Below, in pieces: positions 23,118 through 55,811 of a stretch of 64,000 bases of DNA; the stretch's first letter is position 1, and every line of letters begins with the position of its first letter. The notes under the pieces are model-generated. The model was not told the DNA's origin and did not search any database. It worked only from the letters and a program-made list of their open reading frames with translations. The position numbers and the translations under genes are program-made. The stretch is from the NCBI RefSeq assembly GCF_055900595.2, contig NZ_CM148325.1, one strand, 5' to 3'.

Positions 23118-23169
23118 TATTTAACCTTCCTAAGACGCATTTTCATGACAACCACGGAGGAGGTCATTT

Positions 23170-23250: not shown

Positions 23251-24159
23251 GACAACCCGGGTATGGCTGCGTTTGCATAGTGTTTTCATGGAGTTAAAAA
23301 TCTGTAACAACAGCCTGGTACATCACCACCGGGTTCAGAAGAAAATCCAGTTCCATACCGCGCGGGCAACAGAGACCACCTAGTCACGGACGGCGCGCAG
23401 AACCGTGCGTGCAACAGAGGCAATGCAGACGCTCTCCGCCGTGTCAAATATCCGGTCCACCGCACCGGTAAACTGTTCACGGGCCTGAGACCGGACAGAC
23501 TCCGTGCGCAGCTCGTCCTGCAGGCGGGTCATCAGGGGACTGGCGGCATGGTCGGGAAGTGCTGTCATGAGCGCACTGACCAGCGTATCCAGTTCCCAGC
23601 CGGTGCGGGCCGATACGGCAACAACCCGATGTACGGGCCGGAACAGACGGAATACCGCCTCCGTTTTTTCGCGAATGTTCTGTGCCTGTGCGGGAGAAGG
23701 CTGAATACCGGCCATATCCCATTCATGGCAGGGCTCCGTTTTATCGGCCTGCATCACCACAAACAGTACCCGCTGATGTCCCCGGTGCAGGATGTGTCGC
23801 CAGAAATACTCATCCACAGACAGGGCACGGTCATCGGCTTTAATCAGCCACAGTACCAGGTCCAGTTCGAGCAGAATGTCACGGTACAGGGCTTCATACT
23901 CTGCATCCCTGTCCCGGCTCTCGCCCACCCCGGGCAGGTCAGTGATAACCATGCTGTGACCATGGCCATTCAGACGGAAGCGCTGCACTTCCCGGGGGCC
24001 GGCGTGAACATCACTGACCGGGGTGACCTCCCCCTGAAACAGCGCATTACAGAGTGAGGATTTACCGGCCCCGCTTTTACCCATAATGCCAGGCACGGGT
24101 TCGTGACTGGTGAGTTTGCGCAGATGTTCGTAAGCGACTCGTCAGAACCGTATTGATAT

Positions 24160-25731
24160 TTACTGAGAGCTCAGATCAACTTTCCAGGGCAACAGATCGC
24201 GTACCCGGTTTGCCGGCCAGTCCTGGATATGTTCAATGACGTAACGCAGCCACTTTTCTGGCTCCACATTGTTCAGACGGCATGTGCCGATCAGCGAGTA
24301 CAACACCGCCGCATGTTCACCACCGCTGTCGGAACCCGCGAACATCCAGTTTTTCCGGCCTACGGCCACTCCCCGTAAGGCGTTCTCTGCGATGTTGTTG
24401 TCGATTTCCACCCAGCCATTACTGCAGTACACGTTCAGTGCATCCCACTGTTTCAGCAGGTATGCGAACGCTTTTGCCGTATCTGAGTGACGCGACAGTG
24501 TTTTCATCTGTTGCTGTATCCAGTCATACAGTGACTGCATCAGTGGCGCGGCTCTGGCTTTTCTTGCCGCCAGACGCTGTTCTGCTGAACAGCCCCGGAC
24601 CTCTGCCTCGATGGCATACAGTTCACCGATACGCTGCAGGGCTTCCGTGGTGATGTAGGTGGGCGCTCTTGCATGCACATCGTGGATTTTTCTCCGGGCA
24701 TGAGCCATACACGCGGCTTCCGTTATTCTGCCGGATTCGTATAACGCCCGGTAACCACCGTAAGCATCGGCCTGAAGCACACCGCTGTAACCGGCCAGGT
24801 GATTTTGTGGATGGATACCTTTCCGGTCCGGACTGTACGCGAACCAGACCGCCGGGGGCATCTGTGAACCGGCGTTACGGTCATCACGGACGTAGACCCA
24901 CAGCCGGGCTGTCCGGGTTTTACCGCTGCCCGGCTCCTGGACCGGGACGGGGATATCATCAGCATGGACTTTACCGGGCATCAGCACATACTGGCGCAGG
25001 ACGTCATACAGCGGCTCCAGCAGTTCAGCAACAGCACCTGTCCAGCGCCCCAGTGTGGCACGGCTCAGCTCCACTCCCTGACGACGGTATATTTCTGACT
25101 GGCGGTATAACGGCAGATGGTCTGCATATTTCCCGGTGACAACATGGGCCAGAAGCCCCGCTCCGGCATAACTGCGTGCAATGGGTTTTGAAGGTACTGG
25201 TGCCTGCACGATATGGTCGCACCGGCAACAGGCCTGTTTCGGACGTTGTGTTTCGATAACCTTAAAGGCGCTGCTGATAAGCTCCAGTTGCTCTGACACA
25301 TCACATCCCAGAGAACTGAGTTCACCACCACAGGCAGGACAGCATTCCTCTTCCGGCCGGATAACCCGGGTTTCACGGGGAAGTGAGGCCGGTAACGGTT
25401 TACGGGCTGAAGACTGGCGCAGGGCGGATGGCAGTACCGGGTCATATTGCTCACCCAGCGTTTCCGCCATTTCTTCCTGAAGTGCGCTGATTCGCTCCTG
25501 TGCTTCCTGTATCTGCCGTTCGGTTTTTGCACGAAGTTTTTCTGAGCTTTTACCGAACTGCATACGTTGCAGTTTCGCAACCAGCGCCTTCAGCCGGTTG
25601 ATTTCGGAAGCATAAGCCGCCACCCGCTGTGAGAGCAGGCGGTTGTATTCAGCCATCTGGCGGATGGTGTCCTGTTGCGTCTGCAACAGTGCCCGCAGGC
25701 GGGCGTTCTCATGAGCAAGTGAGGTGTCCAT
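24160..25731 (-). CDS. tnpC: IS66-family transposase TnpC (Orf3)
   Basis: 523-aa ORF with N-terminal coiled coil, zinc-ribbon CPACGG and C-terminal ...[27 protein letters not shown]. Confidence 0.9.
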
Positions 25732-25750
25732 ATCCTCACTTTACAACGGG

Positions 25751-26098
25751 TTATATGCGGATTCCAGCGCGTTCCGTTCGTTTCGGGTGCTTCCAGTTGA
25801 TACCTTCAAGAAGCATGGATAACTGAGCCGGAGTAAGGTGCACCTTGCCGTCACGGGTGACTGGCCAGACGAAGCGGCCCCGCTCCAGGCGTTTGGTGAA
25901 GAGGCACAGTCCGTCACTGTCAGCCCACAACACTTTTATCTGGTCACCCCGGCGTCCGCGGAAGATGAACAGGTGTCCGGAGAACGGGTCATCCTTCAGG
26001 ACGTTCTGAACTTTTGATGCCAGGCCGTTAAAGCCATTTCGCATATCGGTGATACCTGCAACCAGCCAGATACGCGAACCTGCAGGGAGAGATATCAT
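25751..26098 (-). CDS. tnpB: IS66 Orf2 (TnpB)
   Basis: 115-aa ORF MISLPAGSRIWLVAGITDMRNGFNGLASKVQNVL... Confidence 0.9.
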   Translation of the reverse strand: MISLPAGSRIWLVAGITDMRNGFNGLASKVQNVLKDDPFSGHLFIFRGRRGDQIKVLWADSDGLCLFTKRLERGRFVWPVTRDGKVHLTPAQLSMLLEGINWKHPKRTERAGIRI

Positions 26099-26775
26099 CA
26101 GTGGCTGCTCCCTTTTATTTCGCGGATAAGTGTCTGTAATAACGCCGGCGTCAGTTTACCTTTAAGCCTGAGAGTTCCGGCCGGCAGAACCAGCTCACAA
26201 CACAGACTGTCGGACGGTGTATTTATCCGCTCTGGTTCCTGTGCGGGGGCCGGGATTTTATTATCCGGCTCCGGCGTTAACGTCACGGGAAGCAGTGCCG
26301 GCATATTTTTTCCGGAAGGCAGCAGGCCACCTTTCCGGTATTGATGGCGCCAGTTGAAGAGCAGGTTATCGTTGATTCCGTTTTCCCGGGCGATCTGCGC
26401 CACACAGGCTCCGGGCTGCAGTGACTGCTCCACTAAGGCGATTTTAAACTCATAAGGGAAGTTGGGCCGCCGGGGACGTTTTTTTACCACGGGGGCTTCG
26501 GATATAACGGTGCTTTCAGGACGTACGACTGGTACCGTGGAAAATTGTCCGTAAAGGCAGGCATCAAGTTCCTGCTCCGACATGCCTGCGGGCAAAGGCC
26601 ACGAAAGGCCAGCTCTCCGAAAGCGCACGAACATACTACAAACTGTTGATTTTGGTACACCCAGGCGACGCCCGGCCACAACCCGGGGTAAATGTTCTTC
26701 AAAGTGAAGACGTAAAGCTTCAGTGATCCAGGTCCGGTGTTTCATACGATAGTGTCCATTAAAAATGATGGACAT
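26098..26775 (-). CDS. tnpA: IS66 Orf1 (TnpA, HTH protein)
   Basis: C-terminal half matches IS66 Orf1 (FKIALVEQSLQPGACVAQIARENGINDNLLFNWRHQYRKG...); start codon uncertain. Confidence 0.8.
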   Translation of the reverse strand: MSIIFNGHYRMKHRTWITEALRLHFEEHLPRVVAGRRLGVPKSTVCSMFVRFRRAGLSWPLPAGMSEQELDACLYGQFSTVPVVRPESTVISEAPVVKKRPRRPNFPYEFKIALVEQSLQPGACVAQIARENGINDNLLFNWRHQYRKGGLLPSGKNMPALLPVTLTPEPDNKIPAPAQEPERINTPSDSLCCELVLPAGTLRLKGKLTPALLQTLIREIKGSSH

Positions 26776-26997
26776 TATTTTTGTAGAGCCGGAGGAAACA
26801 GACCAGACGGTTTAAATGAGCCGGTTACAGATGTTCCAGGATGTGACGGGAAAGTGAGTAAGGCAGGGAGGAGAGCGGTTTTTCAATTGCCTCAATGGCA
26901 TCAGACGGATTCATACATGTATTCCCGGTGAAAAAAGACAAAACCCCGCGCACCGGAAAGGTGGCGGGGGATTCACGGAAATAATATCTGTCTGAAA

Positions 26998-28161
26998 TTA
27001 TCTGGAATCGATTTGGCTGTTCTGCCTGGTTGCCACCAAATCATGGTACGCCTGCTCAATCATTTCATTCAGCAGTTTTTTTGGGAGGACACCACGACTT
27101 CGGGCAATACTTTCAAGCTGTTTGTGGATTTTTCCGGACAGTTTCAGAGGGACGGAACCATCAGCACGTTCATCACGCCTTTTTTGTTGCTCCCGGGCAC
27201 TTTTCAGCTCATCAAGAAGAATCGCTTTATGCTGAATCCTGGGGGCCTGGAAGGAGACCTGCGTAAACTTCGCTCTGTTCCGTCTGGGATTACTTTCCAG
27301 TAAAAACTGTACCTGTTGCTCATTCCAGCCCTCCCAGTTATCAAACGTGGCGCAGGCAAACCAGTATTTCTGCTCCGGGGTAAGGGGATTCAGCGGGGTT
27401 CCCACACACCGGACCTGCATGGCGTTCCATAACCAGTCACACTGTTCACTGTCCCTGCTGTCCACCCACGAAAAGGGGGAGGGGTAATCATTGTTTATGC
27501 TGGCCCATTCAGAGAATACTGAGTTGATAATCGTCCTCGTAGCCTCTGGTCCGGATTTCAGCAGGTAACTGGAGCAGAACCATATAATTTCACGGTAGAT
27601 TTTATCCGGATGCACGGTGCGCATCGGCTTTTCTCTGGGACCGGCAATCTTCGGTTGCGATGGAAACCCCGTGGCAAACCGCAGATGTTCCGGGGGCATT
27701 CCTGAACGTTTTTCAGGAATGGGTGTGAGTCCTGCGTTTCTGGTCTTTTCCGCTTGTCCGGTATTGCCTCCGGCCGGAGTGTTGTCGGGAGTATCTTCCG
27801 GAGGCGAGGTGTTTTCATTAGTTGGGGGAACAACAGCAGAACTGTCCATCTCCGGAATGGGTTGAGGGGCATAATCACTGTGGTAGCCAGGGGAAAGCGT
27901 TAAGTCCCGAAGGGTGACATCAGGTTCCGGGCAGTGAGTGCCACCGGGAGTGAACGGGAGTTGTTGCTTTTGGGAGAAAAATGTATTGTGAATGCGGGTA
28001 TACAGCTGGAACAGAAAAAAATAAGATGCCCGTGGTTCTTTTTTTAACCACTGTGTATATTCCTCTATGGCACCGAGCTGTTGTTTGTGCCGTTTTACAG
28101 CATCGATATACGGACAGCTGGTGCAGATATCATCCAGTTCCTTTCCCACAATACACCTCAC
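26998..28161 (-). CDS. Hypothetical island protein (387 aa; Pro/Thr-rich linker, basic C-terminus)
   Basis: Long ORF upstream of the yeeP-like gene; no motif recognised; start uncertain. Confidence 0.5.
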   Translation of the reverse strand: MRCIVGKELDDICTSCPYIDAVKRHKQQLGAIEEYTQWLKKEPRASYFFLFQLYTRIHNTFFSQKQQLPFTPGGTHCPEPDVTLRDLTLSPGYHSDYAPQPIPEMDSSAVVPPTNENTSPPEDTPDNTPAGGNTGQAEKTRNAGLTPIPEKRSGMPPEHLRFATGFPSQPKIAGPREKPMRTVHPDKIYREIIWFCSSYLLKSGPEATRTIINSVFSEWASINNDYPSPFSWVDSRDSEQCDWLWNAMQVRCVGTPLNPLTPEQKYWFACATFDNWEGWNEQQVQFLLESNPRRNRAKFTQVSFQAPRIQHKAILLDELKSAREQQKRRDERADGSVPLKLSGKIHKQLESIARSRGVLPKKLLNEMIEQAYHDLVATRQNSQIDSR

Positions 28162-29680
28162 CTGCTTTTCTCACATTTGCAGATTTTAAAAAAGCAAACA
28201 AAAACCTCCGTACATGATGTACAGAACAATCTACCAGGTAGTGGCGTCAGAAAACCCCCGGGCCGCCTGCACTTTCCGGAATGCGCCGGTTATGAAAAAC
28301 CGGAAATTCAGTCTCTGTTGTAAGATGTACCCTCTGATACTACGTTTTCTCTGTGTATTTAACTCACTGTATTTATTGTCTTTTTAAGCTTGACTGATAT
28401 TCTCCGGTCATAGTGTGCCGGATATACATCCCGTAAACTTCTCATTTTTATATAAAAATACCTGCACTCTCTTCAGCGCATCTGTCTCCTTTAAGTAAAA
28501 AATGTTTTCACGTATTGCTGTAAATTCATTTTAAATCAGTATATTACCTTGATATTGCTGTCTCCTGGTTTGATGCGTAATCGTTCTGCCTTTCTGGATG
28601 ATTCTGGTGCTTCCGGGTGCATTCTCCTCTGCACATGCAACAGTTCGTCATCGCCACGCTCCCAAAAAGCATATAAAAACGAATCGAATTTGATATTTTT
28701 TTCAATCGTTTTTCATAGGAATTTCGTAGGGTATTCTCCGCTATAACCTCCATATTTGCTGCCTTTTTCTCCATAAATCGTATGCAATATAGCCTGTCTG
28801 TCAAGACCTCTTCTCTGCTGTTGAGGAGACGATCTCATTTTTGGTCTTTTCCGGGAGAGAGGCTGTCAGATGAGCGAGCCGGATATACTGTCAGAGGTAC
28901 ACCCCGTAGCAGACCTGTGCTCCCATTTCCGCGATCCGGAACCAACAACACCCTACGGTTAATACCATTTGAAGCGTCAGGTACTGCAGGAAGTTCCCCC
29001 CTGCGCGGACATCGGTTCCTGCCGACATCTCACAATACGGCCAGACTGTCATGCAGTAACACCCGCATGCGGTCTGCGGTTTTAAGCGCACTCTCCCGTT
29101 TTCAGTGCACCGATAATGCGTCATAGTAAGTCTGGGGGAAGTTACGGAATGCCTGTTAAGTGGTGCCGTGGGTGGAGACAGCTTACTTTTCTACAGCAAC
29201 TGCAGTCATTCAGGATGATCAGGAGATATTCTGTCAATGTCACGATCCTGCCATTTTCGTACCCGCTAAGATACTTCCGTTACTGATGCTGTCCGCTTTT
29301 CACCATTTCATCCTCACTGACAGGCGTTGCGTTTTGGGTCATCACCACAGCTTTACGTTTCTCTTTTAACCGGTAACGCTCTCCTTTGATATTCAGCGTG
29401 GTTGAGTGATGCAGCAGTCAATCCAGGAGCGCTGTTGTCCGGCAACCACCATATCAACTTCTTCCCGGGTGTGGCGGAGAGGTGGTATCCTGGCTGAGTT
29501 TCGAAGCGAACCGTTCTTTTTGACGGGCGCATTTTACGTCCGGGCTGAATGTAGTAACGCGGCATGGAACGTCGGCCCGTATACCATTGCCTTAATCTCC
29601 GCAAAGATAACCTCGTCATTCCGGACATTCTCTGCCAGGCATATGTCGATGTAATCCATAAACGATTTCAGCTTACCCCT

Positions 29681-31638
<1,958 letters not shown>

Positions 31639-32500
31639 TTTGTGGCCAGTCTTTCTGGCTGGCGGTTCAGGGGATGTTTTCTGGTTATCGTGTACCACAA
31701 AGCAGGGATATTGCCCCGATAGTCACATTTCAGATTGATCGCGGTCTGAAGATGTGGCACTGAGGTAACGTGCTGGTGTCACTGGTATTGCTGAAGTTAT
31801 GGTTTTTCGGGGTCAGGTGAGCCTGTTGTGTGTATGCTTTTTGTTCAGGTCAGAGGGGGACTGTGTGGACAGCGGCTTTTGTCTCCGGGCATTCACGCCT
31901 GAACGATGAATGCGATTTTCAGCAATATTTGTCTTTGTGACACTCTCTGGTTGAGAAGCTAATGCGCGCCCCTGTTTCCACAGAGAATGAGGCTTGCCAT
32001 CAGCCGAAACATCAGTATTCCACGCCATACAGACGGCGCCTGACCATGTGCTGATGCAGGTAAAATGTTTCACTACAACTGTTCGGGTTGCTATGCAACG
32101 AAACAGCGATTCTCACGATCTTTAACTGCAACGTTTTTCCGCCTGAAAGCTGACTGCCTCCTGCTGAGGTGGGAGGCTATGATTCAGTGCGTTTATAGTC
32201 TCCGGGGTATGCATGTACCGGAGCATACCATTTCTGGTGGATAACAAGCCGGCACATTCAGACTGCAGTGAAGATGGAAGCACCTGGTTGTGAAGAACGT
32301 TTCTGCCCGTGGCTGCTTCGCATCATCAATGGTATTCATACCCGCTCAGAAATGACCGGGTGCTGAAGCCCTCCGTTATCGCGCAGTATAATGACGTATA
32401 TGATCTGTGGACGAGTGAGCGGCGTGCCTGATGTACGCCGCTATTACTGTATTTTACCACAGGGCTGGTTTTCTGCTGCCAGCCCTGTGGTTCTCAGACA

Positions 32501-33118
32501 TCAACTGTGAGCGGCATCAACCGATGTACGGTATGCCATAAGCACGTACTGATCCATCAGATTTGTCAGTGGTTCACTCTGACCCTGACGTGCAATGATC
32601 CATTGCTCCAGATCTTTTTCTGATTTGTGTTTCAGGTTTTTCGTCCAGTCGTCAAGGCTGTTTCCGGTCATTAAGTCAAGCCAGCAGAGCCAGACCAGTT
32701 TGAGACGTAACTCCGTGCCGCCAAACTGACGGAAGAGGCTGATCAGTTTGTTTGCCAGAGAATGTTGCTTCAGGCGCTCACATTCAGACAGCAGGATCCC
32801 TTCCAGCATCGGATGATGAACCAGCAGGTGTTCGCTGGTGCATAAATTCACCACCAGATCATCATCCAGGGACGGGGAGCTCCGTTTGTCCGGACCATAA
32901 ATCAGCCGGTGCAGACTCTGGGGAACGATGGCAATCTCCGGTTTTTCGCCATTGAATGACACCCACCCGGGCGTCAGATTATGGAAATAGTAGATATTCG
33001 GATGACACACGCCCCATGATACGGCGTGCCGGGTGAAGCCGGTCAGCCATTTCTGGTAGTTTTCATGGAGCAGCTCGTAACGGGTCTGATACTGTTGTTT
33101 CATTTTCATATTCCTCAC
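32501..33118 (-). CDS. Hypothetical island protein (205 aa)
   Basis: ORF MRNMKMKQQYQTRYELLHENYQKWLTGF... downstream of alpA-like gene on the same strand. Confidence 0.5.
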   Translation of the reverse strand: MRNMKMKQQYQTRYELLHENYQKWLTGFTRHAVSWGVCHPNIYYFHNLTPGWVSFNGEKPEIAIVPQSLHRLIYGPDKRSSPSLDDDLVVNLCTSEHLLVHHPMLEGILLSECERLKQHSLANKLISLFRQFGGTELRLKLVWLCWLDLMTGNSLDDWTKNLKHKSEKDLEQWIIARQGQSEPLTNLMDQYVLMAYRTSVDAAHS

Positions 33119-33196
33119 GGGGGATAACAGGCAGCAGAGCGCCGCCGGCAGGCCGGAGATTGCGTCTGCTGTGGGCGAAGGGTTAGTGGTTAAAAA

Positions 33197-33403
33197 TTAC
33201 GGACGGGACTGTGCAATACGCGCCTGCAGCCAGGCTTCCACTTCACTTTTCAGCCAGCGGGAGCTGCGCCCCATTTTGATGGGCGCAGGAAAGCCCCCAT
33301 CTTTGATGAGTTTGTCAAACCACTTATCGGTTAGGCCGGTCAGTTGAGTGATAAACGCCATGTCGACCATCTGGTCATCCATCAGCGAAACTGGGGTAGC
33401 CAT
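33197..33403 (-). CDS. alpA: AlpA-family prophage transcriptional regulator
   Basis: 68-aa core MATPVSLMDDQMVDMAFITQLTGLTDKWFDKLIKDGGFPAPIKMGRSSRWLKSEVEAWL; ORF-track start at 33604 is an extension. Confidence 0.75.
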   Translation of the reverse strand: MATPVSLMDDQMVDMAFITQLTGLTDKWFDKLIKDGGFPAPIKMGRSSRWLKSEVEAWLQARIAQSRP

Positions 33404-34529
33404 GAGAATGTTCCTCCGGATGTTGTTAAACCAGCCGGTGTGGTCATGAAAACAGCGCGCCACCTTCACCGGCATAACAACCGGGGAGAAACGTAAAAAA
33501 TAATCGGGAATGCGGCTGTCCGGAGATAAACGGGGGGATTGCGATGGCAGAGCCGTAGCGGAATCCCGGAGGGGGGGGTTGCGAAAAGATGCTTCCGCAC
33601 GCACGCGCGATAAAGAGGGGATAGTTTTCGTGAGGACAGGGAGAGAAGCAGGCGTTCTGATAATTGCAGAGTTGTTTTCGGAGGTGGTTACAGTGAGTCA
33701 GCCCGTTCCTGGCGAGCAGGAGACTGATATCACCGATGGGATAAGGTTGTCTGATTGGTATTATAAATATAAGAAGTCATCAGAGAGTAACGTAAAGGAT
33801 TTGCCAGAATAACCTAAGAGAGTAAATCTCTCCGGTAACAGAGCGCTGTGAAGCATTCTGTATCAGAGTGCAGATACATGAACGCTGATGCGTAAAATCA
33901 GCAGTGACACGCCAGCTCCCCCTATGCCCATTCCTGTATAAGACATGAACTGAGTGTATTAATGCTTCTGCCCTGAGACTGAGCCGGTGAGTGAGGGGCT
34001 GAGAAATCCCTCTTGACACAGCTCTAACCAGAAATACTTCCCCGGTTGTTGCGGTGCGTCCGGATCCCCGATAACGGAACACTAAGGCTGTATTGCGGGA
34101 CACCGGGTAAGTAGCAGCCCGTAAGGCGTTCTGTCAACGCCAGAAAAAATGATTTCCCACACGCGTTATAGACTCACTCCTGTGGACCTGGAAGCCCGTA
34201 ACTCTGCGTTTGCCCACTGACTGACGGAACTGACCGCAAATTTTACGAGTGCGTGCTGGGCTTCAGTCTGGTCACCTGAGCGTTCGGTAACGGAGGCGCG
34301 GGCGGTAATAGGCTGATTTTCAGGTATTACCGGCTTACAGCGTGTGGTTGATATTGAGGGGCTGTGAGTTTCGCGTATTTGTCAGAAACCCAGACGAGTT
34401 TTCCTGTATGGGACGAAATAAGGCAGCGGCAATACCTGGAAAAATTTAATATGGTATGAAGGAGAACCTGTCGGTTACGCTTAATATACCCGGTACACTG
34501 TCAGCTCAGGGGATACATGAACCGTTATC

Positions 34530-34733
34530 TCACCAGCTACACAGTATATACACACTGACGCTGACAGTAGTCAGCAGGACCACAATAATCAGTGCCAGCA
34601 GTATGGTAACGATACGGTCTGTATTCCGGTAATAGCCGAAGGGGTCGACAGAACCACAATACGGGCAACACACTGTATTATGAGTAATCGCGTTTCCACA
34701 GTCCCTGCACTTCTTTTTGCGTATCACCATCAC
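34530..34733 (-). CDS. Small zinc-ribbon protein with C-terminal TM anchor (67 aa)
   Basis: CRDCGNAITHNTVCCPYCGS followed by hydrophobic IVTILLALIIVVLLTTVSVSVYIL. Confidence 0.45.
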   Translation of the reverse strand: MMVIRKKKCRDCGNAITHNTVCCPYCGSVDPFGYYRNTDRIVTILLALIIVVLLTTVSVSVYILCSW

Positions 34734-34893
34734 TCCCTCCTCACAGCCTTACCCGTAACCGGTTTTTTACATTAAAAAACCAACGCTGAAAATTCAACCG
34801 TCAGTCCGGAGACGACCGTTCGGGTTATCACAGAGTGCCTGAGACAGTGTCCTGCCGGAGGTCACTTCAGGGACTCTGCGCATTTTTTACGAC

Positions 34894-35499
34894 GTGGCTA
34901 TTCCGTATGAACCATACGGAGATTTAACCATGACCTACAAATACAACCCCTTCTGGCAGCAACGTATTCGTGAGACGGTGCGGCACGCACTGAATGTTCA
35001 TCCCCGCCTGACGGCATTGCGGGTTGACCTGCGTTTCCCGGATGTACCGGCAGCAACGGACGCAGCTGTGATATCCCGCTTCATCAATGCCCTGAAAGCC
35101 CGAATCGACGCTTACCAGAAACGTAAGCATCGGGAAGGTAAACGCGTGCATCCCACAACCCTGCATTACGTCTGGGCCCGGGAGTTTGGGGAGTGCAAAG
35201 GTAAAAAACACTATCACCTGATGCTGCTGGTTAACCGGGATACCTGGTGTCGTGCCGGTGATTACCGTGCTCCGGGATCACTGGCCGGGATGATTAAACA
35301 GGCGTGGTGCAGTGCCCTGGGAGTGGATGTCGGGTGCCATGCCACACTGGTGCATTTTCCGGCCTGGCCGGCGGTGTGGCTGGAACGCGATGATGACACT
35401 GGCTTTCAGCAGGTGCTGGAACGTGCTGACTATCTGGCGAAGGAACATACCAAAGCTCACTGCACCGGTGAGCGCAATTTTGGCTGTAGCCGGAGTTGA
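34894..35499 (+). CDS. YagK/YfjJ-family (inovirus Gp2-like) protein
   Basis: 201-aa ORF ...MTYKYNPFWQQRIRETVRHALNVHPRLTALRVDLRFPDV...HYHLMLLVNRD... Confidence 0.6.
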   Translation: MAIPYEPYGDLTMTYKYNPFWQQRIRETVRHALNVHPRLTALRVDLRFPDVPAATDAAVISRFINALKARIDAYQKRKHREGKRVHPTTLHYVWAREFGECKGKKHYHLMLLVNRDTWCRAGDYRAPGSLAGMIKQAWCSALGVDVGCHATLVHFPAWPAVWLERDDDTGFQQVLERADYLAKEHTKAHCTGERNFGCSRS

Positions 35500-35752
35500 G
35501 CACGACTGGCGCGCCAATACCCGGCAAACCAAAAGTATGGGTTGTTGTCTGGCGGCAACGATGTATCCACTCGCCCACTGACTGTTTTTTACGTCAGTGT
35601 TCCATTGTGTGACAACCACAGTGCTGTAACAGCAACCAGCCTGCTTTACCCAAACTCCAGTCCAGATTTTAACTGAACCGCCATTCACACCCTGACCACG
35701 CTGCCCGTACCGGGACGGCTGTTGCCTGCGTGTCGTCTGGCGGCTGAGGAAT

Positions 35753-36160
35753 ATGACTATGTACGCAAAATCCTTTATCGCTCTTGATGGCAACGGACGT
35801 CTGACGGGCGCCCGTACTGCACAGGCCGCACCTTATGCTAACTACACCTGCCACTTGTGTGGCAGTGCACTCAGATACCATCCGCAATACGACACTGAAC
35901 TTCCCTGGTTTGAACACACTGACGACAGGCTGACAGAGCACGGTCAACAGTGCCCTTATGTCAGGCCGGAGCGCAGAGAAATACAGTTGATTAAACGTCT
36001 GCAGCAATTCGTACCGGATGCCTTACCCGTGGTGCGTAAAGCCAGCTGGCACTGCAGACAATGTCACCACGATTATTATGGGGAGCGGTACTGCACACAC
36101 TGCCAGACCGGAGGATTCAGTATTCCCCGGACAACTCAGGAGGAAATATGCGAATTCTGA
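35753..36160 (+). CDS. Zinc-ribbon protein (paralog 1)
   Basis: CHLCGS...PWFEH...QCPY and C-terminal CRQCHHDYYGERYCTHC. Confidence 0.55.
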   Translation: MTMYAKSFIALDGNGRLTGARTAQAAPYANYTCHLCGSALRYHPQYDTELPWFEHTDDRLTEHGQQCPYVRPERREIQLIKRLQQFVPDALPVVRKASWHCRQCHHDYYGERYCTHCQTGGFSIPRTTQEEICEF

Positions 36161-36555
36161 ACTGTTATATGGCGAATGACAGCAAAGGCCATTTTGTTAC
36201 GGCGAAAGAAGCAGCGAAGCACAACCGCCAGGACGTTTTGTGCTGTGTGTCCTGTGGATGCCCGTTAACACTTCAGCGGGGCAATGACGGACAACCACCG
36301 TGGTTTGAACATGACCAGATGACTGTCGCTGAGAAAATCCTGCTGCGATGCACCTGGCTTGACCCGGCAGAGAAAGAGGCCCGTCGTTTGCATCTGCAGG
36401 GTATGACGGTTCCGGATTATACGGTGAAGGTGAGAAAGTGGTTTTGTGTGATGTGTGACGAAAATTATGAGGGGGAAAAGTGCTGCCCGAGTTGTGGTAC
36501 CGGGGTATACAGCAGGGAGGGGGGGCAGGAGGGCAACTGGAAGGATAGGAACTGA
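36148..36555 (+). CDS. Zinc-ribbon protein (paralog 2)
   Basis: Same architecture: CVSCGC...PWFEH...CVMCDENYEGEKCCPSC; start overlaps the stop of paralog 1. Confidence 0.55.
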   Translation: MRILNCYMANDSKGHFVTAKEAAKHNRQDVLCCVSCGCPLTLQRGNDGQPPWFEHDQMTVAEKILLRCTWLDPAEKEARRLHLQGMTVPDYTVKVRKWFCVMCDENYEGEKCCPSCGTGVYSREGGQEGNWKDRN

Positions 36556-36838
36556 GCGGTTCAGTCGCGGAAATCAGTTGCAGAGCTGTAATGATATCTC
36601 CGGGAGTGCTGCGTTGGTAGGGGCATCCCGGGATAGAGAAATTTTAGCACTTTGCCCTGAATGATTGTAGACGTCCCGAGTACTCGTACCGGTCTGAGTT
36701 ATTACAGTTAGATATTCACTTTTTCTCCCGCATACTTCACATCTGTCAACGACGGATGAAAAGTGGTTCTTCCGCAACCTGGGTGGAAGAAAATGGATGA
36801 AACTTTCTGGCGAACAAGGATCTAAGCTGTTTTAAGTT

Positions 36839-38458
36839 ATGGGCAACGCAATGCACTCTCTTAAGACACTTCTACAGTTACCTTGCGGATGGCGATGCAG
36901 TCGACAAATTATTAGCTCTGACGGTATAACCCTCCATCTCCACGGAAAACGCAAAACAGCACAATGTCCTGAATGCTTTAAGCGTAGCGACTCTGTTCAT
37001 AGTTGTCGTCGGCGCCGGATACAGCATCTACCCTGCTCAGGGCAGACGCTATGGCTTGTATTTTCCGTCCGCCACTGGTACTGCCGTAACCCGGCTTGTT
37101 CACGTAAAATTTTTGCCGAGTCGCTTGCTCCCTTCGCCAGTTCACACCAGCAGTCTTCACAGGCGTTACAAAATTAACAACGTCAACTGGGATTAATAGC
37201 TGGAGGTGAGGCTGGAAAACGGGCTGCAACGGCAGTGGGTCTCCGTTGCAGTGCTGATACTCTTCTTCGCAGGCTTATCAATACCCCGGAGACGAAACAG
37301 TCAGGCGCGCCTCATGTCGGTATTGATGAGTGGGCGTGGCATCGGGGCCACTGCTGCGGTATGTTAATAGTCAATCCTGATACTCACCGTCCCCTCGTCC
37401 TGCTTCCCGGCCGTGATCAGCGTACGCTGGCGACCTGGTTCAGAAAATATCCGGAAATACAGGTTGTCTCGCGTGATCGCAGTGGAGTCTATGCGACAGC
37501 AGCACGTGAAGGTGCACCTCAGGCCAGACAGGTGGCCGATCGATGGCACCTGCTAAAAAATATTGGTGATGAGCCTGAACGAATGATGTACAGATATATG
37601 CCTCTGATACGTCTTGTTGTCAGAGAGTTATCACTGAAGAAATCACCTGAGCCAGAAATATCTGTGCCTGTAGCATCGCTCCGTCGTCTGGAACGCCTTA
37701 AACAGCACATCCGCAAAAAACGGCATCAGCGTTGGACAGAGGTTATGGCCCTGCATAACAAGGGATGTAGTTTCAGGGAAATATCCCGTATTACAGGCCT
37801 GTCGCGAGTGACAGTCAGTCGCTGGGTGGGTTCAGGAACATTCCCTGAAATGTCAACTAGGCCTCCAAAGCGAGGGCTTCTGGACCCATGGAGGGAGTGG
37901 TTAAAAGAGCAACGAGAATGTGGTAATTATAACTCCGGCCGGATATGGCGGGAAATGGTGGCCAGGGGGGTTACAGGCAGTGAAACCATCGTCAGGGATG
38001 CTGTTGCCAAATGGCATAAAGGCTGGATCCCACCGGTTACTACTGCCGCAAGACTTCCTTCAGTGTCCCGGGTAAGCCGCTGGTTGATGCCCTGGAGAAT
38101 AATCAGGGGTGAAGAAAATTATGCTTTCCGATTTATTAGTCTGATGTGTGAAAAAGAACCGGAGTTGAAAATAGCGCAGCAACTGGTACTCGAGTTCTAC
38201 CGTATTCTGAAAACCTAAAATAAATCACAGCTAAGCAGCTGGTTCACTCGGGTCCACGAAAGCGGCTCAGCAGAACTTCGGTGCGTAGCTGCGGGGATGG
38301 AAGCTGATGCTGCGGCTATATGTGAGGCAATCAGCAGTCGCTGGAGTACTGGTGTTGTCGAAGGTCATGTAAATCGCCTGAAGGTGCTGATACGCCAGAT
38401 GTATGGTCGAGCCGGACTTGAACTACTTAGGCGGAGGGTAATGAGTCCACTGGCATGA
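36839..38458 (+). pseudogene. ISL3-family transposase, disrupted by frameshifts (three ORF pieces)
   Basis: N-terminal zinc-finger piece (36839-37177), core (37235-38218) and C-terminal tail ...EGHVNRLKVLIRQMYGRAGLELLRRRVM in a third frame. Confidence 0.75.
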
Positions 38459-38509
38459 AAATCTTCACCTAGGTTGAGGAAGAGCCACTTTTGCACTGTT
38501 CGTGACAGT

Positions 38510-38830
38510 ATGGCCTTTATGTACTCACTTTGTTACCGGTAGCTGAATCATCACTACCGTGCTGCAAATGGTGGTGAACAGCATCAATTGTGGAATGAAT
38601 GTTGCCGAAGCGACCAATGCGCCTCGTTTCCACCATCAGTGGTTGCCGGACGAGCTGCGTGTTGAAAAGGGTTTAGTCCGGATACGCTCAAGCTGCTGGA
38701 AGCAAAAGGTCAGAAAGTGGCGCTGAATGAGGCGATGGGCAGCACGCAAAGCATTATGGTTGGGTCGGATGGTGAGTTGTACGGCGCATCCGACTCGCGC
38801 TTGGTGGATGATTTAACGGCGGGGTATTAA
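38510..38830 (+). pseudogene. ggt: 3' fragment of a gamma-glutamyltranspeptidase (ggt) gene copy
   Basis: Translates ...MVVNSINCGMNVAEATNAPRFHHQWLPDELRVEKGFSPDTLKLLEAKGQKVALNEAMGSTQSIMVGSDGELYGASD...DLTAGY*; preceded by an in-frame stop, no N-terminal part. Confidence 0.7.
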
Positions 38831-38869
38831 TTGACATCCCCCGGCGCAGTGTGCCGGGGGATAATGGTT

Positions 38870-39721
38870 TTATGCGGTCAATAATCGTCCGGGATTATCG
38901 ATACAGAGTTTTTTGAGGATCGTTTTATCGACGCCGCGCTCCGCCAGATAGGCCAGAAAAACATCTGGAACAAATCCCCAGCCATTACCGCCATTTTTAG
39001 CCCACATTTGTTTAAGGAAGACATCGTGGCTGAGAACAAGCTGATCGGCGTATCCCAACTCAATGAGATGAGCGACGGCATCGGCAGTCTCCTGCACCCC
39101 TGGCGCTATTCCCTCTTTCGGGAAGGTAATGTCTAGGCCAATCATGTCGAATTCCAGCCAGACACCCTTATCAAGCATTTTCCGCTGATACGCCACGTCT
39201 TTTCCTGACGGATCCGAGTGTGCGAGAGAGACTTTATTTGGCGAGACGCCCATTTCACCTAACACAATGTCGAGTACTTCATCACCGCGACGAAGCCAGC
39301 CCGGCATGTGAATATTCATCGCCACATGAGGATTGTTAATCTGTGCCAGCGAGGCAGCCCGCAAGCTGTTATGCTCGGCTTCGGTAAATGTCGGTGAGAC
39401 ACCTATTTCACCGATCATTCCGGCACGAATATCCGTATCGCCAATCCCTTGATTCAATTCTTTATCAATCGTTGCCGCCAGTTCATCAACCGTTTTATGA
39501 ATTCTCTGGCTTTCAAATTTTTCCAAGTAGGGACCGGAGGAAGCAACAATATTCAGACCTGTTTTTAATGCGACTTCTCGTAATGCCTGCGCATCTCGTC
39601 CGATAGACTCAGACCCTGTGGCATCAACAATGGTGCGACCACCGAGCGAGATAAAGTTATTAATTTCGAAGATCACATCTTCAATAGGTTTGCGGTCCAT
39701 ATTATCAGCGCAGCAATAAGG
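38870..39721 (-). pseudogene. Phosphotriesterase-family (PHP-like) hydrolase gene, 5'-truncated by IS3
   Basis: 276-aa C-terminal ORF of the amidohydrolase/phosphotriesterase fold; N-terminal HxH region missing; frame stays open up to the IS3 end at 39722. Confidence 0.6.
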
Positions 39722-39777
39722 TGATCTTACCCAGCAATAGTGGACACGCGGCTAAGTGAGTAAACTCTCAGTCAGAG

Positions 39778-40086
39778 GTGACTCACATGACAAAAACAGT
39801 ATCAACCAGTAAAAAACCCCGTAAACAGCATTCGCCTGAATTTCGCAGTGAAGCCCTGAAGCTTGCTGAACGCATCGGTGTTACTGCCGCAGCCCGTGAA
39901 CTCAGCCTGTATGAATCACAGCTCTACAACTGGCGCAGTAAACAGCAAAATCAGCAGACGTCTTCTGAACGTGAACTGGAGATGTCTACCGAGATTGCAC
40001 GTCTCAAACGCCAGCTGGCAGAACGGGATGAAGAGCTGGCTATCCTCCAAAAGGCCGCGACATACTTCGCGAAGCGCCTGAAATGA
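39778..40086 (+). CDS. insE: IS3 OrfA (InsE)
   Basis: 102-aa HTH ORF ...[48 protein letters not shown]... Confidence 0.9.
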
Positions 40087-40905
40087 AGTATGTCTTTATT
40101 GAAAAACATCAGGCTGAGTTCAGCATCAAAGCAATGTGCCGCGTGCTCCGGGTGGCCCGCAGCGGCTGGTATACGTGGTGTCAGCGGCGGACAAGGATAA
40201 GCACGCGTCAGCAGTTCCGCCAACACTGCGACAGCGTTGTCCTCGCGGCTTTTACCCGGTCAAAACAGCGTTACGGTGCCCCACGCCTGACGGATGAACT
40301 GCGTGCTCAGGGTTACCCCTTTAACGTAAAAACCGTGGCGGCAAGCCTGCGCCGTCAGGGACTGAGGGCAAAGGCCTCCCGGAAGTTCAGCCCGGTCAGC
40401 TACCGCGCACACGGCCTGCCTGTGTCAGAAAATCTGTTGGAGCAGGATTTTTACGCCAGTGGCCCGAACCAGAAGTGGGCAGGAGACATCACGTACTTAC
40501 GTACAGATGAAGGCTGGCTGTATCTGGCAGTGGTCATTGACCTGTGGTCACGTGCCGTTATTGGCTGGTCAATGTCGCCACGCATGACGGCGCAACTGGC
40601 CTGCGATGCCCTGCAGATGGCGCTGTGGCGGCGTAAGAGGCCCCGGAACGTTATCGTTCACACGGACCGTGGAGGCCAGTACTGTTCAGCAGATTATCAG
40701 GCGCAACTGAAGCGGCATAATCTGCGTGGAAAGCTTCTTTCATTCGCTGAAAGTGGAATGTATCCATGGAGAACACTTTATCAGCCGGGAAATAATGCGG
40801 GCAACGGTGTTTAATTATATCGAATGTGATTACAATCGGTGGCGGCGGCACAGTTGGTGTGGCGGCCTCAGTCCGGAACAATTTGAAAACCAGAATCTCG
40901 CTTAG
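40083..40905 (+). pseudogene. insF: IS3 OrfB (InsF) transposase, frameshifted by the 44-bp deletion
   Basis: DDE core intact to ...[12 protein letters not shown]-terminal ...[43 protein letters not shown]... continues in another frame. Confidence 0.8.
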
Positions 40906-42393
40906 GCCTGTGTCCATATTACGTGGGTAGGATCACCGCACTCTTGACATAAGAGTGCGGTCCGTGGAAAACGGAGTTGAAAAAATGGTGTCTGAAAGAA
41001 GGTACCATCATTGCGATGACAAACACTTTGGCGTGGATAATGTAATTAATTGCTGAAATTGACCGTATATGCGGTAAGACTCATATCAGTATCAGGTCCG
41101 GTTAATTGCTGATACTGACATAAACTTTTTACAAAAGGATGAATGCAGAAGGTTACTCTAATGGCCAGAGTGATGACAATGATGGTCAGACGTTGACCTG
41201 CAGAAACTGCATTTTAATTGGTCTATAAAGTCTGCAAGAGGAATCAGGGCCAGATCAGTGAGTCTTATCGCGGCCCGAAGCTATGACTGAAAGAAGGCTG
41301 GATACAGAATTGCAACAATTTGGCAATGTCAGAACACAGAAGCTTTGCAAGCAGGTGAAAGGTTATGTCTAGCAAAAGGAGTATATCAGAATACATCTAC
41401 TGATGTATAAAACACAACAATAGCTTCATGATATATAAATACGTGATGACGAGTGGTACTCCGCATGGTTATTTAACTTCTCAGCACCACTAATGATCCT
41501 GAGCAACTTCGTATTTGGGCCATTGCCATGGAGTAGAAAGCTGTGTCTGAGAATGCAGAATTTGAGAAAAGAATTCGCTTTCTTGGAGAGCTTCTGAAAA
41601 TGGCACGCTAACAACGTTTTGTTAAAAAATGTGAATCACTTGCCGAGGCTGCATTTTCTATTCGAGGAGAATGTTGACGTAGATATTACAGAAATCTCAG
41701 CGCATCAGGATAAACTGCTACCTTAGGTCAACCACCAAAAGAAAATACAATACGTCCAGTTTGTATGCCTTTAATAACACATCTTTTAAATGTTGAAGAA
41801 TTATCCCGCCTGCTGAAGAACGTTGCTCTGAGTGTGATAAACCTTTTTATTCTTGATGATGTCAGCGAGAAGATGGAATATATCCCCGACTGGGTCGTGG
41901 TTACCCGGTTAAACATCTGGTGGCGCTAATAAATCTGGCAAGTCACATTCTGTTGAATGCTGTGACAGTGCCTTACCGAGAGAGCGAAATTGTGGTGTTC
42001 TAGTGCATAGTCGCCACCATTCCGGATAATTCTATTGCGTTGTTTTACAAGTTCTTTTACAGCGCAGATCTGTCGTTGACGTTGAATCAATAGCCTGGAT
42101 TTCAGAACACAATGCCCGTTTGCTGGTTGGTCCGGCAGTAGCATTAATTCATTATCTGAATGAAATGTGTCAATCCACAGAAACCGCTGTCAATGACGCA
42201 TTTTGTCGGACGTTAACACGAGGAAGTCTGGCTATTCCACAATGCCATCTTCTTTCGTAATGGATTGAGAATGCTGGATTTTTAATTATATTACGCGCAG
42301 TATTGATCGTGTAAATGTTTTGCGGTCAGCAATGGTGGGGGATCCATTGTTCTGTTCAATGAATACCATCATACAATTGAATCAGGAGTCGGT

Positions 42394-42939
42394 ATGATGA
42401 TTTTGGTGACGGGGGGCGCACGGAGCGGGAAGAGTCGCCACGCAGAGGCGCTTATTGGGGACTCTTCACAGGTTCTGTATATCGCCACCTCGCAAATCCT
42501 TGATGACGAGATGGCTGCACGGATAGAACATCATCGGCAAGGCCGTCCGGCGCACTGGCGCACGGTGGAGCGTTGGCAACATCTTGATGAATTAATTCAT
42601 GCAGACATTAACCCGCATGAAGCTGTGTTGCTGGAATGCGTTACCACAATGGTGACTAATCTGTTGTTTGATTATGGCGGCGATAAAGACCCTGATGAAT
42701 GGGATTATCAGGCGATGGAACAGGCGATTAATGCTGAGATTCAGTCGTTGATTGCTGCCTGCCAACGTTGCCCCGCAAAGGTTGTATTAGTGACTAACGA
42801 AGTGGGAATGGGGATTGTGCCGGAGAGTCGTCTGGCACGACATTTTCGTGATATTGCCGGGCGGGTAAATCAGCAGCTGGCCGCTGCGGCAAATGAAGTA
42901 TGGCTGGTGGTTTCGGGTATTGGAGTAAAAATCAAATGA
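42394..42939 (+). CDS. cobU: Adenosylcobinamide kinase / adenosylcobinamide-phosphate guanylyltransferase CobU
   Basis: 181-aa ORF with P-loop GGARSGKS. Confidence 0.92.
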
Positions 42940-43679
42940 GTAAATTATTTTGGGCGATGCTCTCATTTATTACGCGTCTGCCTGTACCGCGTCGCTGGTC
43001 CCAGGGACTGGATTTCGAGCATTATTCTCGCGGTATTATTACTTTTCCTTTAATTGGATTATTGCTTGGCGCGATTAGCGGGCTGGTCTTCATGGTGCTG
43101 CAGGCATGGTGTGGCGTACCACTGGCGGCACTGTTTAGCGTACTTGTGCTGGCGCTGATGACCGGGGGATTCCACCTAGACGGCCTCGCCGATACCTGTG
43201 ATGGCGTATTTTCTGCACGTAGCCGCGATCGCATGTTGGAAATCATGCGTGATAGCCGTTTAGGTACCCACGGCGGTCTGGCATTGATTTTTGTTGTACT
43301 GGCAAAGATTTTGGTGTTAAGCGAGTTGGCTCTGCGTGGCGAACCGATCCTTGCATCGCTGGCGGCAGCATGTGCGATCAGCCGCGGGACTGCCGCATTA
43401 TTGATGTATCGTCATCGTTATGCCCGGGAAGAAGGGCTTGGCAATGTGTTCATTGGCAAAATTGATGGGCGACAAACCTGCGTCACACTCGGCTTAGCCG
43501 CTATTTTTGCTGCCGTATTATTGCCGGGTATGCATGGTGTGGCTGCTATGGTGGTGACGATGGTGGCGATTTTCATCCTCGGTCAGCTTCTCAAACGTAC
43601 GCTGGGCGGGCAAACCGGCGATACGCTGGGAGCAGCCATAGAGCTTGGTGAACTGGTCTTCCTGCTGGCACTGCTATAA
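42936..43679 (+). CDS. cobS: Cobalamin 5'-phosphate synthase CobS
   Basis: Multi-[23 protein letters not shown]...; start overlaps cobU stop. Confidence 0.9.
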
Positions 43680-54515: not shown

Positions 54516-55113
54516 AATGATCCTGTTTGTACTGTCTTTTTATAATTAGTATGGAAAAGGTAACTCACATTGCCGTCGATCTATAAACGAACCTTATGAG
54601 ACTACCTCGACAGAGCGAATCTGCAAATGATTTTATGGCTGATTAACGGCAACATGAAAAATTCGATGGAAGATGAAAGCGCAGGAGTTGCTGGTGTTGT
54701 TTAAGGATTAAGCAGAGGGCCCACAGGTTCGAGATATGAAACATAAAAGTCCGCATATGCACAAAATTGCACCCTGATGATTCTGATAGACTGCATTGCA
54801 TTATAACCAGTAGGGAGGCGAGGTTAGTTATGTTTTTAGTATCATTGTTGAGACGTATTGCATTTAGTTACTACGATTATAAAGCTTATAATTTTAATAT
54901 TGAAAAAACAGACTTTGTTGTCATACATATTCCCGATCAGATTGGCGATGCTATGGCCATCTTTCCTGTTATTCGGGCGCTTGAATTGCATAAAATTAAG
55001 CATCTATTAATTGTTACGTCGACAATTAATTTAGAAGTCTTTAATGCGCTCAAACTTGGGTGATGCTGCCAACTTACTGATTTAGTGTATGATGGTGTTT
55101 TTGAGGTGCTCCA

Positions 55114-55389
55114 GTGGCTTCTGTTTCTATCAGCTGTCCCTCCTGTTCAGCTACTGACGGGGTGGTGCGTAACGGCAAAAGCACCGCCGGACATCAGCGC
55201 TATCTCTGCTCTCACTGCCGTAAAACATGGCAACTGCAGTTCACTTACACCGCTTCTCAACCCGGTACGCACCAGAAAATCATTGATATGGCCATGAATG
55301 GCGTTGGATGCCGGGCAACTGCCCGCATTATGGGCGTTGGCCTCAACACGATTTTACGTCACTTAAAAAACTCAGGCCGCAGTCGGTAA
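55114..55389 (+). CDS. insA: IS1 InsA
   Basis: 91-aa [46 protein letters not shown]... Confidence 0.95.
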
Positions 55390-55811
55390 CCTCGCGCATA
55401 CAGCCGGGCAGTGACGTCATCGTCTGTGCGGAAATGGACGAACAGTGGGGCTATGTCGGGGCTAAATCGCGCCAGCGCTGGCTGTTTTACGCGTATGACA
55501 GGCTCCGGAAGACGGTTGTTGCGCACGTATTCGGTGAACGCACTATGGCGACGCTGGGGCGTCTTATGAGCCTGCTGTCACCCTTTGACGTGGTGATATG
55601 GATGACGGATGGCTGGCCGCTGTATGAATCCCGCCTGAAGGGAAAGCTGCACGTAATCAGCAAGCGATATACGCAGCGAATTGAGCGGCATAACCTGAAT
55701 CTGAGGCAGCACCTGGCACGGCTGGGACGGAAGTCGCTGTCGTTCTCAAAATCGGTGGAGCTGCATGACAAAGTCATCGGGCATTATCTGAACATAAAAC
55801 ACTATCAATAA
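55308..55811 (+). CDS. insB: IS1 InsB reading frame (expressed as InsAB' by -1 frameshift)
   Basis: 167-aa ORF overlapping insA in the -1 frame; ...[46 protein letters not shown]... Confidence 0.9.

Follow-up and report, generated by a model that had tools for sequence, protein, structure and literature searches.

The genomic island at cobU in Escherichia coli and its Hma cargo have been described previously (PMC6315130, PMC7545054), as has the rikA-stm3548-stm3549-stm3550 cluster of Salmonella Typhimurium (PMC13432705). In extraintestinal E. coli such as CFT073, GI/PAI-cobU (c2482-c2528) carries Hma and Fbp and lies directly upstream of cobU, the same chromosomal site as the region studied here. 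The window, i.e. the whole stretch of 64,000 nucleotides analysed from contig NZ_CM148325.1 of assembly GCF_055900595.2, has an inovirus Gp2/zinc-ribbon/CbtA-CbeA backbone in common with GI/PAI-cobU and with CP4-44 of K-12. Sequence comparison revealed that it is 100% identical to the chromosome of E. coli M160133, and RefSeq already annotates the same four pseudogenes in genomes identical to it.

The region upstream of cobU is the decayed edge of this known island (CP4-44 / GI-cobU region). We consider it highly probable that its present state results from a single history in which an enterobacterial module was carried into the island, about 13 kb were replaced by an IS3 copy and 44 bp were subsequently lost from orfB of that copy.

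Decayed elements and gene remnants upstream of cobU

The leftmost component is a full-length ISEc38-like ISL3 element of 1764 bp (36744-38507, plus strand), delimited by alignment to ISEc38 and by both terminal inverted repeats (36743-36785 / 38466-38508). Full length, terminal repeats and a transposase with Pfam matches to Zn_ribbon_ISL3 and DDE_Tnp_ISL3 all place it in the ISL3 family. ISEc38 has the same length, the same ends and a single 540-codon transposase frame with the same two domains, whereas the corresponding frame in the window (36839-38458) is interrupted by two in-frame stops, at 37175-37177 (codon 113) and 38216-38218 (codon 460). Nucleotide identity to ISEc38 is 95.1%, with 86 mismatches and no indels; the first-pass annotation, made from the sequence alone, had described this transposase as frameshifted and let the decayed region begin at 36800, and both readings have to be corrected. 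No 8-bp target duplication borders the element (TTCACATC / GTATGGCC), an absence that is uninformative because three independent plasmid copies of ISEc38 show no obvious one either. Its 5% divergence suggests an ancient, inactive copy, apparently fixed in this position in about one-half of the E. coli genomes.

A 29-bp spacer (38508-38536) separates the last position of ISEc38 homology, 38507, from the beginning of homology to E. coli and Salmonella ggt near 38537. The ggt 3' remnant (38537-38830, plus strand) comprises about 97 codons, corresponding to residues ~484-580 of the 580-amino acid enzyme, in good agreement with the last ~100 codons of a second ggt copy recognised earlier. E. coli Ggt uses residue 391 as its autoprocessing nucleophile, and neither this residue nor the remainder of the complete ~580-amino acid precursor is encoded by the stub. 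Alignment and three-frame translation further disclosed two lesions, a TGA in frame at 38544-38546 and the loss of 1 bp near 38665. The proximity of the stub to the ISL3 element, at 29 bp, does not prove that this element caused the truncation of ggt.

The ggt remnant converges on a 5'-truncated gene of the phosphotriesterase family (38870-39721, minus strand), and the two 3' ends are separated by a GC-rich hairpin with a 12-bp stem (38836-38862), which on inspection is terminator-like and looks like a putative terminator shared by both stubs. This hairpin is the sole exception among predicted promoters and terminators, whose counts are otherwise at chance level; a Rfam scan of 36000-43000 gave no match to an RNA family.

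The phosphotriesterase stub adjoins the left end of IS3 and retains 283 codons, residues 62-344 of 344. It matches Pfam PF02126 with 148 bits (cut-off 22.4) over profile positions 28-297 of 298, and all 283 residues are identical to those of the intact 344-amino acid ST131 protein from residue 62 on. The barrel is incomplete, the absent N-terminal 61 residues including the HxH metal-binding motif (H23 and H25), which is invariant in alignment. The truncation by IS3 noticed in the first-pass annotation is thus real, but the gene is not of the Php type proposed there: it is an orthologue of Salmonella STM3550. A Php/YhfV identity was rejected on scores of 104-108 bits against an equivalog cut-off of 486 for NF007373, those of a paralogous family member.

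To the right of IS3, positions 40936-41119 are collinear with ST131 and K-12 and represent a remnant of the region ~213 bp upstream of the TonB-dependent receptor gene of the island (hma / K-12 yoeA type). The junction with IS3 falls in the centre of a palindromic sequence whose stem measures 15 bp, and the ancestral sequence at this breakpoint reads ...CCACGGA followed, across the break, by CCGCACTCTTGACATAAGAGTGCGGTCCGT. An AT-rich spacer (41120-42393; 41-44% GC), delimited by composition and RefSeq annotation, then extends to cobU, which begins at 42394. RefSeq annotates within it an IS4-family fragment (41902-42090) and a 53-codon 3' remnant of a cobalamin-biosynthesis (cbi) gene (42099-42260); the latter had no match in Pfam or NCBIfam scans. 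The decayed elements do lie upstream of cobU, as noted earlier, but IS3 is not placed exactly at the boundary between island and core: its right flank is the upstream region of an island receptor gene and ~1.2-1.5 kb of AT-rich sequence still stands between IS3 and cobU. Breakpoints of other genomes recur at 41120 and ~41400.

The IS3 copy and the loss of about 13 kb

The IS3 copy (39722-40935, plus strand) is 1214 bp long. When aligned to two intact reference copies of 1258 bp, it showed one 44-bp gap and one substitution, i.e. 99.9% identity outside the deletion to reference IS3 (IS3 family), with the same inverted repeats, the same orfA/orfB layout and matching ends (TGATCTTACCCAG... / ...GGGTAGGATCA). 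The deletion read from the sequence alone is confirmed, the 44 bp being absent in the alignment to full-length IS3, and it falls between two CTGCGTGGAA repeats (10-bp direct repeats), one of which is kept at 40721-40730. While orfA is intact (39787-40086), orfB loses its frame just before the codons of a conserved segment of the reference OrfB translation: the Pfam rve core (40083-40814) and rve_2 tail (40726-40905) are in different frames, as claimed at first reading, and RefSeq marks the gene as a frameshifted pseudogene. The pair of an intact orfA and an intact orfB, from which programmed frameshifting yields a DDE (rve) transposase, is thus no longer complete. The copy keeps both ends but, with 44 bp missing from orfB, is unable to make OrfAB transposase. 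It is also the only IS3-matching place on the identical M160133 chromosome.

The flanks of the copy, ...AATAAGG on the left and CCGCAC... on the right, do not form a 3-bp duplication (AGG vs CCG), as had been seen before, whereas a reference IS3 copy shows a GTT/GTT duplication. A single IS copy with unmatched flanks is a classic footprint of recombination or deletion in which IS copies are involved. The first-pass reading that an IS-mediated deletion had formed this junction is supported by the ST131 isolate NZ_OX637959.1, in which 13,022 bp lie between the two IS3 flanks, a distance from which the length actually deleted could differ, an ST131-like ancestral layout being assumed for the window lineage. 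In this isolate the phosphotriesterase gene runs on in frame beyond the left breakpoint. ST131-type genomes carry at the same site an intact rikA(PfkB)-amidotransferase-DMT-phosphotriesterase operon followed by more cargo, including an hma-type TonB receptor gene.

Of 5,426 complete E. coli genomes, 1,920, roughly one-third, carry the lost operon segment (phosphotriesterase N-terminus, DMT transporter, amidotransferase and PfkB kinase) at this site, which bears out the suspicion that the metabolic fragments derive from an earlier cargo region. The fragment comprising ggt and phosphotriesterase sequence occurs in 2,600 genomes, and the exact 6-kb arrangement of the window in 458; strain 042 is among the ~458 with the same IS3 scar.

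In the window lineage IS3 replaced about 13 kb of DNA, which began at codon 61 of the phosphotriesterase gene and ended 213 bp upstream of the hma-type receptor gene. Lost with this DNA were the receptor, the remainder of the operon, an IS66 fragment, ibrA/ibrB-like genes and a yaiO/yaiP-like cluster. While this outcome is evident from the comparison of genomes, we infer the route, which was most likely homologous recombination between two directly repeated IS3 copies, by way of an intermediate that would have carried the junctions of the IS3 right end with AGGATCGTG and of CACGGACCG with the IS3 left end. With chimeric queries made of each ancestral flank and the matching IS3 end, none of the 5,426 genomes was found to have an IS3 with a target duplication at either breakpoint, or a pair of IS3 copies on both sides of the 13 kb. 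The apparent matches of these queries were rejected as intermediates, being IS3-IS3 pairs or independent insertions inside the receptor gene.

The 13 kb could also have been removed in one step by a single IS3 at one breakpoint, one end of which attacked a nearby target on the same molecule. Such an adjacent deletion, which we hold to be possible though rather unlikely, would leave the same single IS3 with unmatched flanks and would be in keeping with the absence of a two-copy intermediate from the 5,426 genomes; the single-copy intermediate that it calls for, in which IS3 at one or the other site would be bordered by a 3-bp duplication, is however equally absent from them. As known from IS3, IS911 and IS2, elements of the IS3 family move by a copy-out/paste-in pathway through a circular intermediate, and this pathway does not readily yield such deletions. 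Moreover, other lineages have acquired independent IS3 insertions in the same orientation inside the receptor gene, and the repeated occurrence of such copies in the region favours recombination between copies.

The formation of the junction was followed by the last step, directly visible in the alignment, in which the 44-bp deletion between the 10-bp direct repeats in orfB cut the in-frame C-terminus off the transposase. An undeleted IS3 of 1257-1258 bp occupies the identical junction in 27 genomes, and the 44-bp loss is therefore later than the formation of the junction. The loss itself looks like the product of slipped mispairing. In related genomes the region is eroded further, AJ5 being devoid of IS3 along with 17 bp of the hydrolase gene and NCTC86 of the right IS3 end, and other layouts exist: CFSAN061768 joins an IS66 remnant to position 41120 of the window and 65COLEC keeps a partial receptor gene. 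The locus is a clean natural example of short-repeat deletions, three in number, of which one removed the 44 bp inside IS3 and two occurred in related strains.

Origin of the ggt-operon module

A full-length core ggt is the neighbour of the operon in Salmonella bongori, S. enterica and three species of Citrobacter, where the two are arranged tail to tail and the operon is 44-50 bp away from the ggt 3' end. The E. coli module is collinear with that of Salmonella in one alignment of 4.5 kb with 75.7% identity. Based on this anatomy, the oldest step of the history would have been the transfer into the island of a chromosomal piece of about 4.5 kb from an enterobacterium, which had one end within ggt (codon ~484) and included the convergent operon (Salmonella STM3547-3550), by a mechanism that we infer only. 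The ggt stub would accordingly be a hitch-hiker, the flank of the operon as in Salmonella and Citrobacter. Today the module is bordered by the ISL3 element, 29 bp from the ggt end, and by an IS66 remnant at the opposite end; the ISL3 copy later diverged by 5% and gained its two nonsense codons.

The operon and its ggt piece were probably lifted from the yhhX-ggt core locus of an Escherichia-like donor and re-deposited in the cobU island. The first-pass annotation had proposed a search for the intact source locus of the fragments: a counterpart with full-length ggt was indeed recovered in Salmonella and Citrobacter, but the donor itself was not, no species representative being closer than 87-88% protein identity. 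A peptide-based scan of the species representatives retrieved Salmonella and Citrobacter and no Escherichia representative, and a degenerate DNA pattern over the junction of the ggt and phosphotriesterase stop codons, probably too strict, had no match in the species-representative genomes.

The stub is closer in nucleotide sequence to native E. coli ggt (92-93% identity) than to ggt of Salmonella and Citrobacter (82-83.5%), as would be the case if it were a decayed internal duplication of the genome's own ggt rather than DNA that came in with the phosphotriesterase operon. A donor belonging to the genus Escherichia or close to it accounts for the same identity, and three observations make the internal duplication very improbable: stub and phosphotriesterase gene align to Salmonella as a single uninterrupted block with the tail-to-tail spacing of the native locus, the sequence beyond the ggt stop codon of native E. 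coli (yrhB side) is unrelated, and the same ggt tail stands beside an intact operon on a plasmid of E. albertii.

That the stubs are live short genes, e.g. a truncated hydrolase (276-codon ORF from an ATG at 39700) and a small ggt protein, has next to no chance of being true and was rejected, for although the phosphotriesterase fragment is free of internal lesions, identical to the intact protein at 100% of its residues and kept in about 458 genomes, it is devoid of residues 1-61 and hence of the invariant HxH, and has lost its promoter and operon partners, the ggt piece is interrupted by a stop codon as well as a frameshift, and the deletions of AJ5 and NCTC86 extend further into the region. 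With 0-1 nonsynonymous changes among the truncated copies, substitutions are too few for a test of selection on the phosphotriesterase stub, and its identity therefore reflects recency. The decayed region upstream of cobU has no function of its own.

The locus beside known systems

The IS-mediated decay of the known cobU island is ordinary, and the pseudogenes were already known from RefSeq annotation. A single history accounts for all four of them, which beyond bookkeeping matters little. If the proposed origin of the module is true, it would add one small documented example in which an operon of core metabolism was turned into mobile island cargo, later to be lost from some lineages along with the heme receptor gene of the hma type. 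The window lacks both the rikA-type operon and this receptor gene at the cobU site, a loss relevant to the use of hma as a marker or vaccine antigen and to studies on the substrate of rikA-stm3550.

Compared with GI/PAI-cobU, the window version has lost the hma-type receptor gene and neighbouring cargo; the sequence upstream of the receptor gene, common to GI/PAI-cobU and K-12 CP4-44, survives as the right flank of IS3. In CP4-44, unlike the window, two receptor fragments remain, with an IS2 between them. The E. coli module agrees in gene order and in its convergent ggt neighbour with the Salmonella rikA-stm3548-stm3549-stm3550 cluster, whose stm3550-type proteins are 86-88% identical to the truncated hydrolase. 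In contrast to the Salmonella cluster, the E. coli version is located not at the ggt locus but inside the cobU island, accompanied by the ggt tail only, and the window keeps just the last 283 codons of its last gene.

Remnants upstream of cobU

Over the 6 kb around the region, the sequence matches the chromosome of the E. coli urine isolate M160133 at 100% identity and is at least 99.5% identical to many further E. coli, strain 042 among them. Of the complete E. coli genomes, 5,426 in number and the set to which all genome counts refer, 458 contain at least 80% of this stretch in one place. RefSeq annotation of an identical record labels pseudogenes for an ISL3 transposase (internal stop), ggt (frameshifted; missing N-terminus), a phosphotriesterase-related protein (missing N-terminus) and an IS3 transposase (frameshifted), so that the first-pass annotation, correct and careful overall, had recovered from the bare sequence what the annotation already recorded. 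RefSeq also places an IS4 fragment and a cobalamin-biosynthesis fragment at 41902-42260, just upstream of cobU; the latter, a gene remnant of 53 codons, had no match in Pfam or NCBIfam scans, its label being that of RefSeq. The phenomenon is an ordinary one, in which IS elements have eroded a known island at cobU whose pseudogenes were already annotated.

The ISL3 element (36744-38507, 1764 bp) is ISEc38-like, with 95.1% identity to many ISEc38 copies, and its ends agree with a 43-nt imperfect inverted-repeat pair. Its transposase had been described as frameshifted. Alignment to ISEc38 revealed 86 mismatches and 0 indels in the window, the 540-codon frame being interrupted instead by nonsense codons at 37175-37177 and 38216-38218, although frameshifts do exist in some related strains. 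No 8-bp duplication flanks the element; its absence is uninformative, since three independent ISEc38 plasmid copies also lack one.

As first described, about 100 last codons of ggt follow, with homology from ~38537 to the stop codon at 38830; they contain an in-frame TGA (38544-38546) as well as a 1-bp deletion near 38665. Two places on the M160133 chromosome match this stub, consistent with the second being the native ggt elsewhere. The adjacent phosphotriesterase fragment (38870-39721, minus strand) reaches exactly to the left end of IS3. The gene is cut off by IS3, as first read, and belongs clearly to Pfam family PF02126, but it is not the orthologue of Php/YhfV. The fragment covers residues 62-344 of a 344-aa protein and therefore lacks the invariant HxH motif (H23/H25). 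The ggt/phosphotriesterase block occurs in 2,600 genomes, in most of which the hydrolase gene is intact.

The IS3 copy (39722-40935, 1214 bp) differs from two intact 1258-bp copies by a single 44-bp gap and a single substitution, in line with the deletion between direct repeats first proposed. Two CTGCGTGGAA copies bracket the gap in the reference element and one is left in the window, at 40721-40730. Because 44 is not divisible by three, orfB changes frame, as had been claimed: the rve core (40083-40814) is read in one frame and the rve_2 tail (40726-40905) in another, and an orfB segment of 10 residues, which we take to be the site of the third catalytic residue as in IS3-family transposases generally, is now out of frame. 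The reported absence of a 3-bp duplication was likewise confirmed (flanks AGG and CCG); one reference copy has GTT/GTT flanks. No other IS3 match was found on the M160133 chromosome.

A loss of probably ~13 kb within the island

The metabolic fragments had been attributed to a former cargo region, and the intact hydrolase operon indeed occupies the same site in ST131 (NZ_OX637959.1). The order there is ISL3 pseudogene, ggt stub, genes for phosphotriesterase, DMT transporter, glutamine amidotransferase and PfkB kinase, IS66 remnant, yaiO-like, LbetaH, yaiP-like and PIG-L genes, PAPS-reductase/IbrB-like genes, TonB-dependent receptor gene, ~1.2 kb of AT-rich DNA, then IS4 fragment, cbi remnant and cobU. 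The two IS3 flanks of the window map 13,022 bp apart on this record, a distance that presumes an ST131-like ancestor, other layouts being in existence. The left breakpoint falls within the hydrolase gene, between AATAAGG and ATCGTG, and the right one between CCACGGA and CCGCAC, 213 bp upstream of the receptor gene, in a palindrome with a 15-bp stem. In K-12 the same right-flank sequence precedes the yoeA receptor fragments. The missing segment, which extends from the N-terminal part of the hydrolase to a point upstream of the kinase gene, was found in 1,920 genomes, and a full-length receptor gene in 1,361.

Contrary to the first reading, IS3 does not mark the island-core boundary; island sequence continues on its right side. 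GC content falls to 41-44% between ~40.8 and 42.4 kb, other genomes break at 41120 and ~41400, and cobU starts at 42394. At 40936-40965 the right end of IS3 meets the centre-left of a perfect palindrome (15-bp stem, ACGGACCGCACTCTT GACAT AAGAGTGCGGTCCGT), whose ancestral form lies at 9838-9880 of the ST131 locus (L013) and 8986-9030 of the K-12 locus (L014), ~200 bp upstream of the hma/yoeA-type receptor gene. The palindrome might serve as a terminator, an operator or an IS target. Its position identifies the receptor as hma. The gene overlaps with the beginning of PAI-CE10-cobU as published, an interval for which Hma is the stated cargo, and GI-CFT073-cobU is defined as c2482-c2528, c2482 being hma.

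We favour recombination between two same-orientation IS3 copies as the origin of the loss, because IS3-family elements transpose by copy-out/paste-in and because independent same-orientation insertions have hit the receptor gene in other lineages. E308 (L016) and 65COLEC (L017) both carry, at 4959-6121 of their loci, an intact IS3 within that gene, oriented as in the window; the edge of the cobU island is a recurrent IS3 target. An adjacent deletion taking out the 13 kb in one step is a possible alternative. Across the 5,426 genomes, neither breakpoint has an IS3 flanked by a duplication, and no pair of IS3 copies brackets the 13 kb.

The junction most simply formed first and the 44 bp were lost later, since 27 genomes carry an IS3 of 1257-1258 bp at identical junctions; the remaining genomes among the matches listed span 1508 bp, corresponding to the 44-bp-deleted copy. 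Related strains show two further short-repeat deletions at this locus: in AJ5 (L009, 7013-7022) a deletion bounded by two GTCCATATTA repeats, one within the hydrolase gene and the other near the IS3 right end, has removed nearly the whole of IS3, and NCTC86 (L015, 7001-7009) is missing the right end of IS3 together with 43 bp of flank, the overlap there being 9 bp.

Surrounding sequence and a plasmid counterpart

A P22-like prophage late region (DNA stabilization, needle and ejection proteins, tailspike) lies beside dacD at 1-12000, with IS1A at 715-1412. The CP4-44-type backbone (16700-36600) carries yeeW, cbeA, yeeS, antirestriction, DUF932, inovirus Gp2 and zinc-ribbon genes, a frameshifted cbtA (16930-17303), a module of patatin-like phospholipase, RdcB-family and dynamin-family genes (21458-25823) and IS100 (29771-31572). 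None of three tRNA-Asn genes (45823, 48231, 50055) has an island insertion. Downstream are a frameshifted family-9 glycosyltransferase gene (54829-55871) and a different IS3-family element (56749-57962), annotated with an AL1L pseudoknot, which truncates a large Ig-like-domain gene (58016 onward).

The IncF plasmid pARG01 (NZ_CP049937.1; L007, 43-7446) holds the same island segment at 99.7% identity, with hypothetical, AlpA, Gp2 and zinc-ribbon genes, the ISL3 pseudogene, the ggt stub and an intact phosphotriesterase gene. The record reflects either the capture of chromosomal island DNA by a plasmid or an artefact of assembly.

Origin of the ggt-operon module

The four-gene cluster corresponds to Salmonella STM3547-3550, of which the kinase was recently named RikA, the remaining three genes being uncharacterised (PMC13432705). 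An intact operon with the same ggt tail is found on an E. albertii plasmid; species representatives searched for relatives of the module gave none above 87-88% protein identity. The ggt stub is 92-93% identical to E. coli ggt vs 82-83.5% to that of Salmonella or Citrobacter, which suggests that the donor belonged to the genus Escherichia or was close to it.

The cluster is located on the core chromosome in S. bongori, S. enterica and three Citrobacter species, its last gene tail-to-tail with a full-length ggt across a gap of 44-50 bp. The E. coli module and Salmonella form a single collinear alignment (75.7% over 4.5 kb) that starts at the ggt stub and ends upstream of the kinase gene. This collinearity with a ggt-adjacent core cluster suggests that the stub was the operon's original neighbour and would have moved into the island together with the operon segment. 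The sole, modest addition made here is to connect the ggt stub with the ancestral rikA-stm3550 locus beside ggt.
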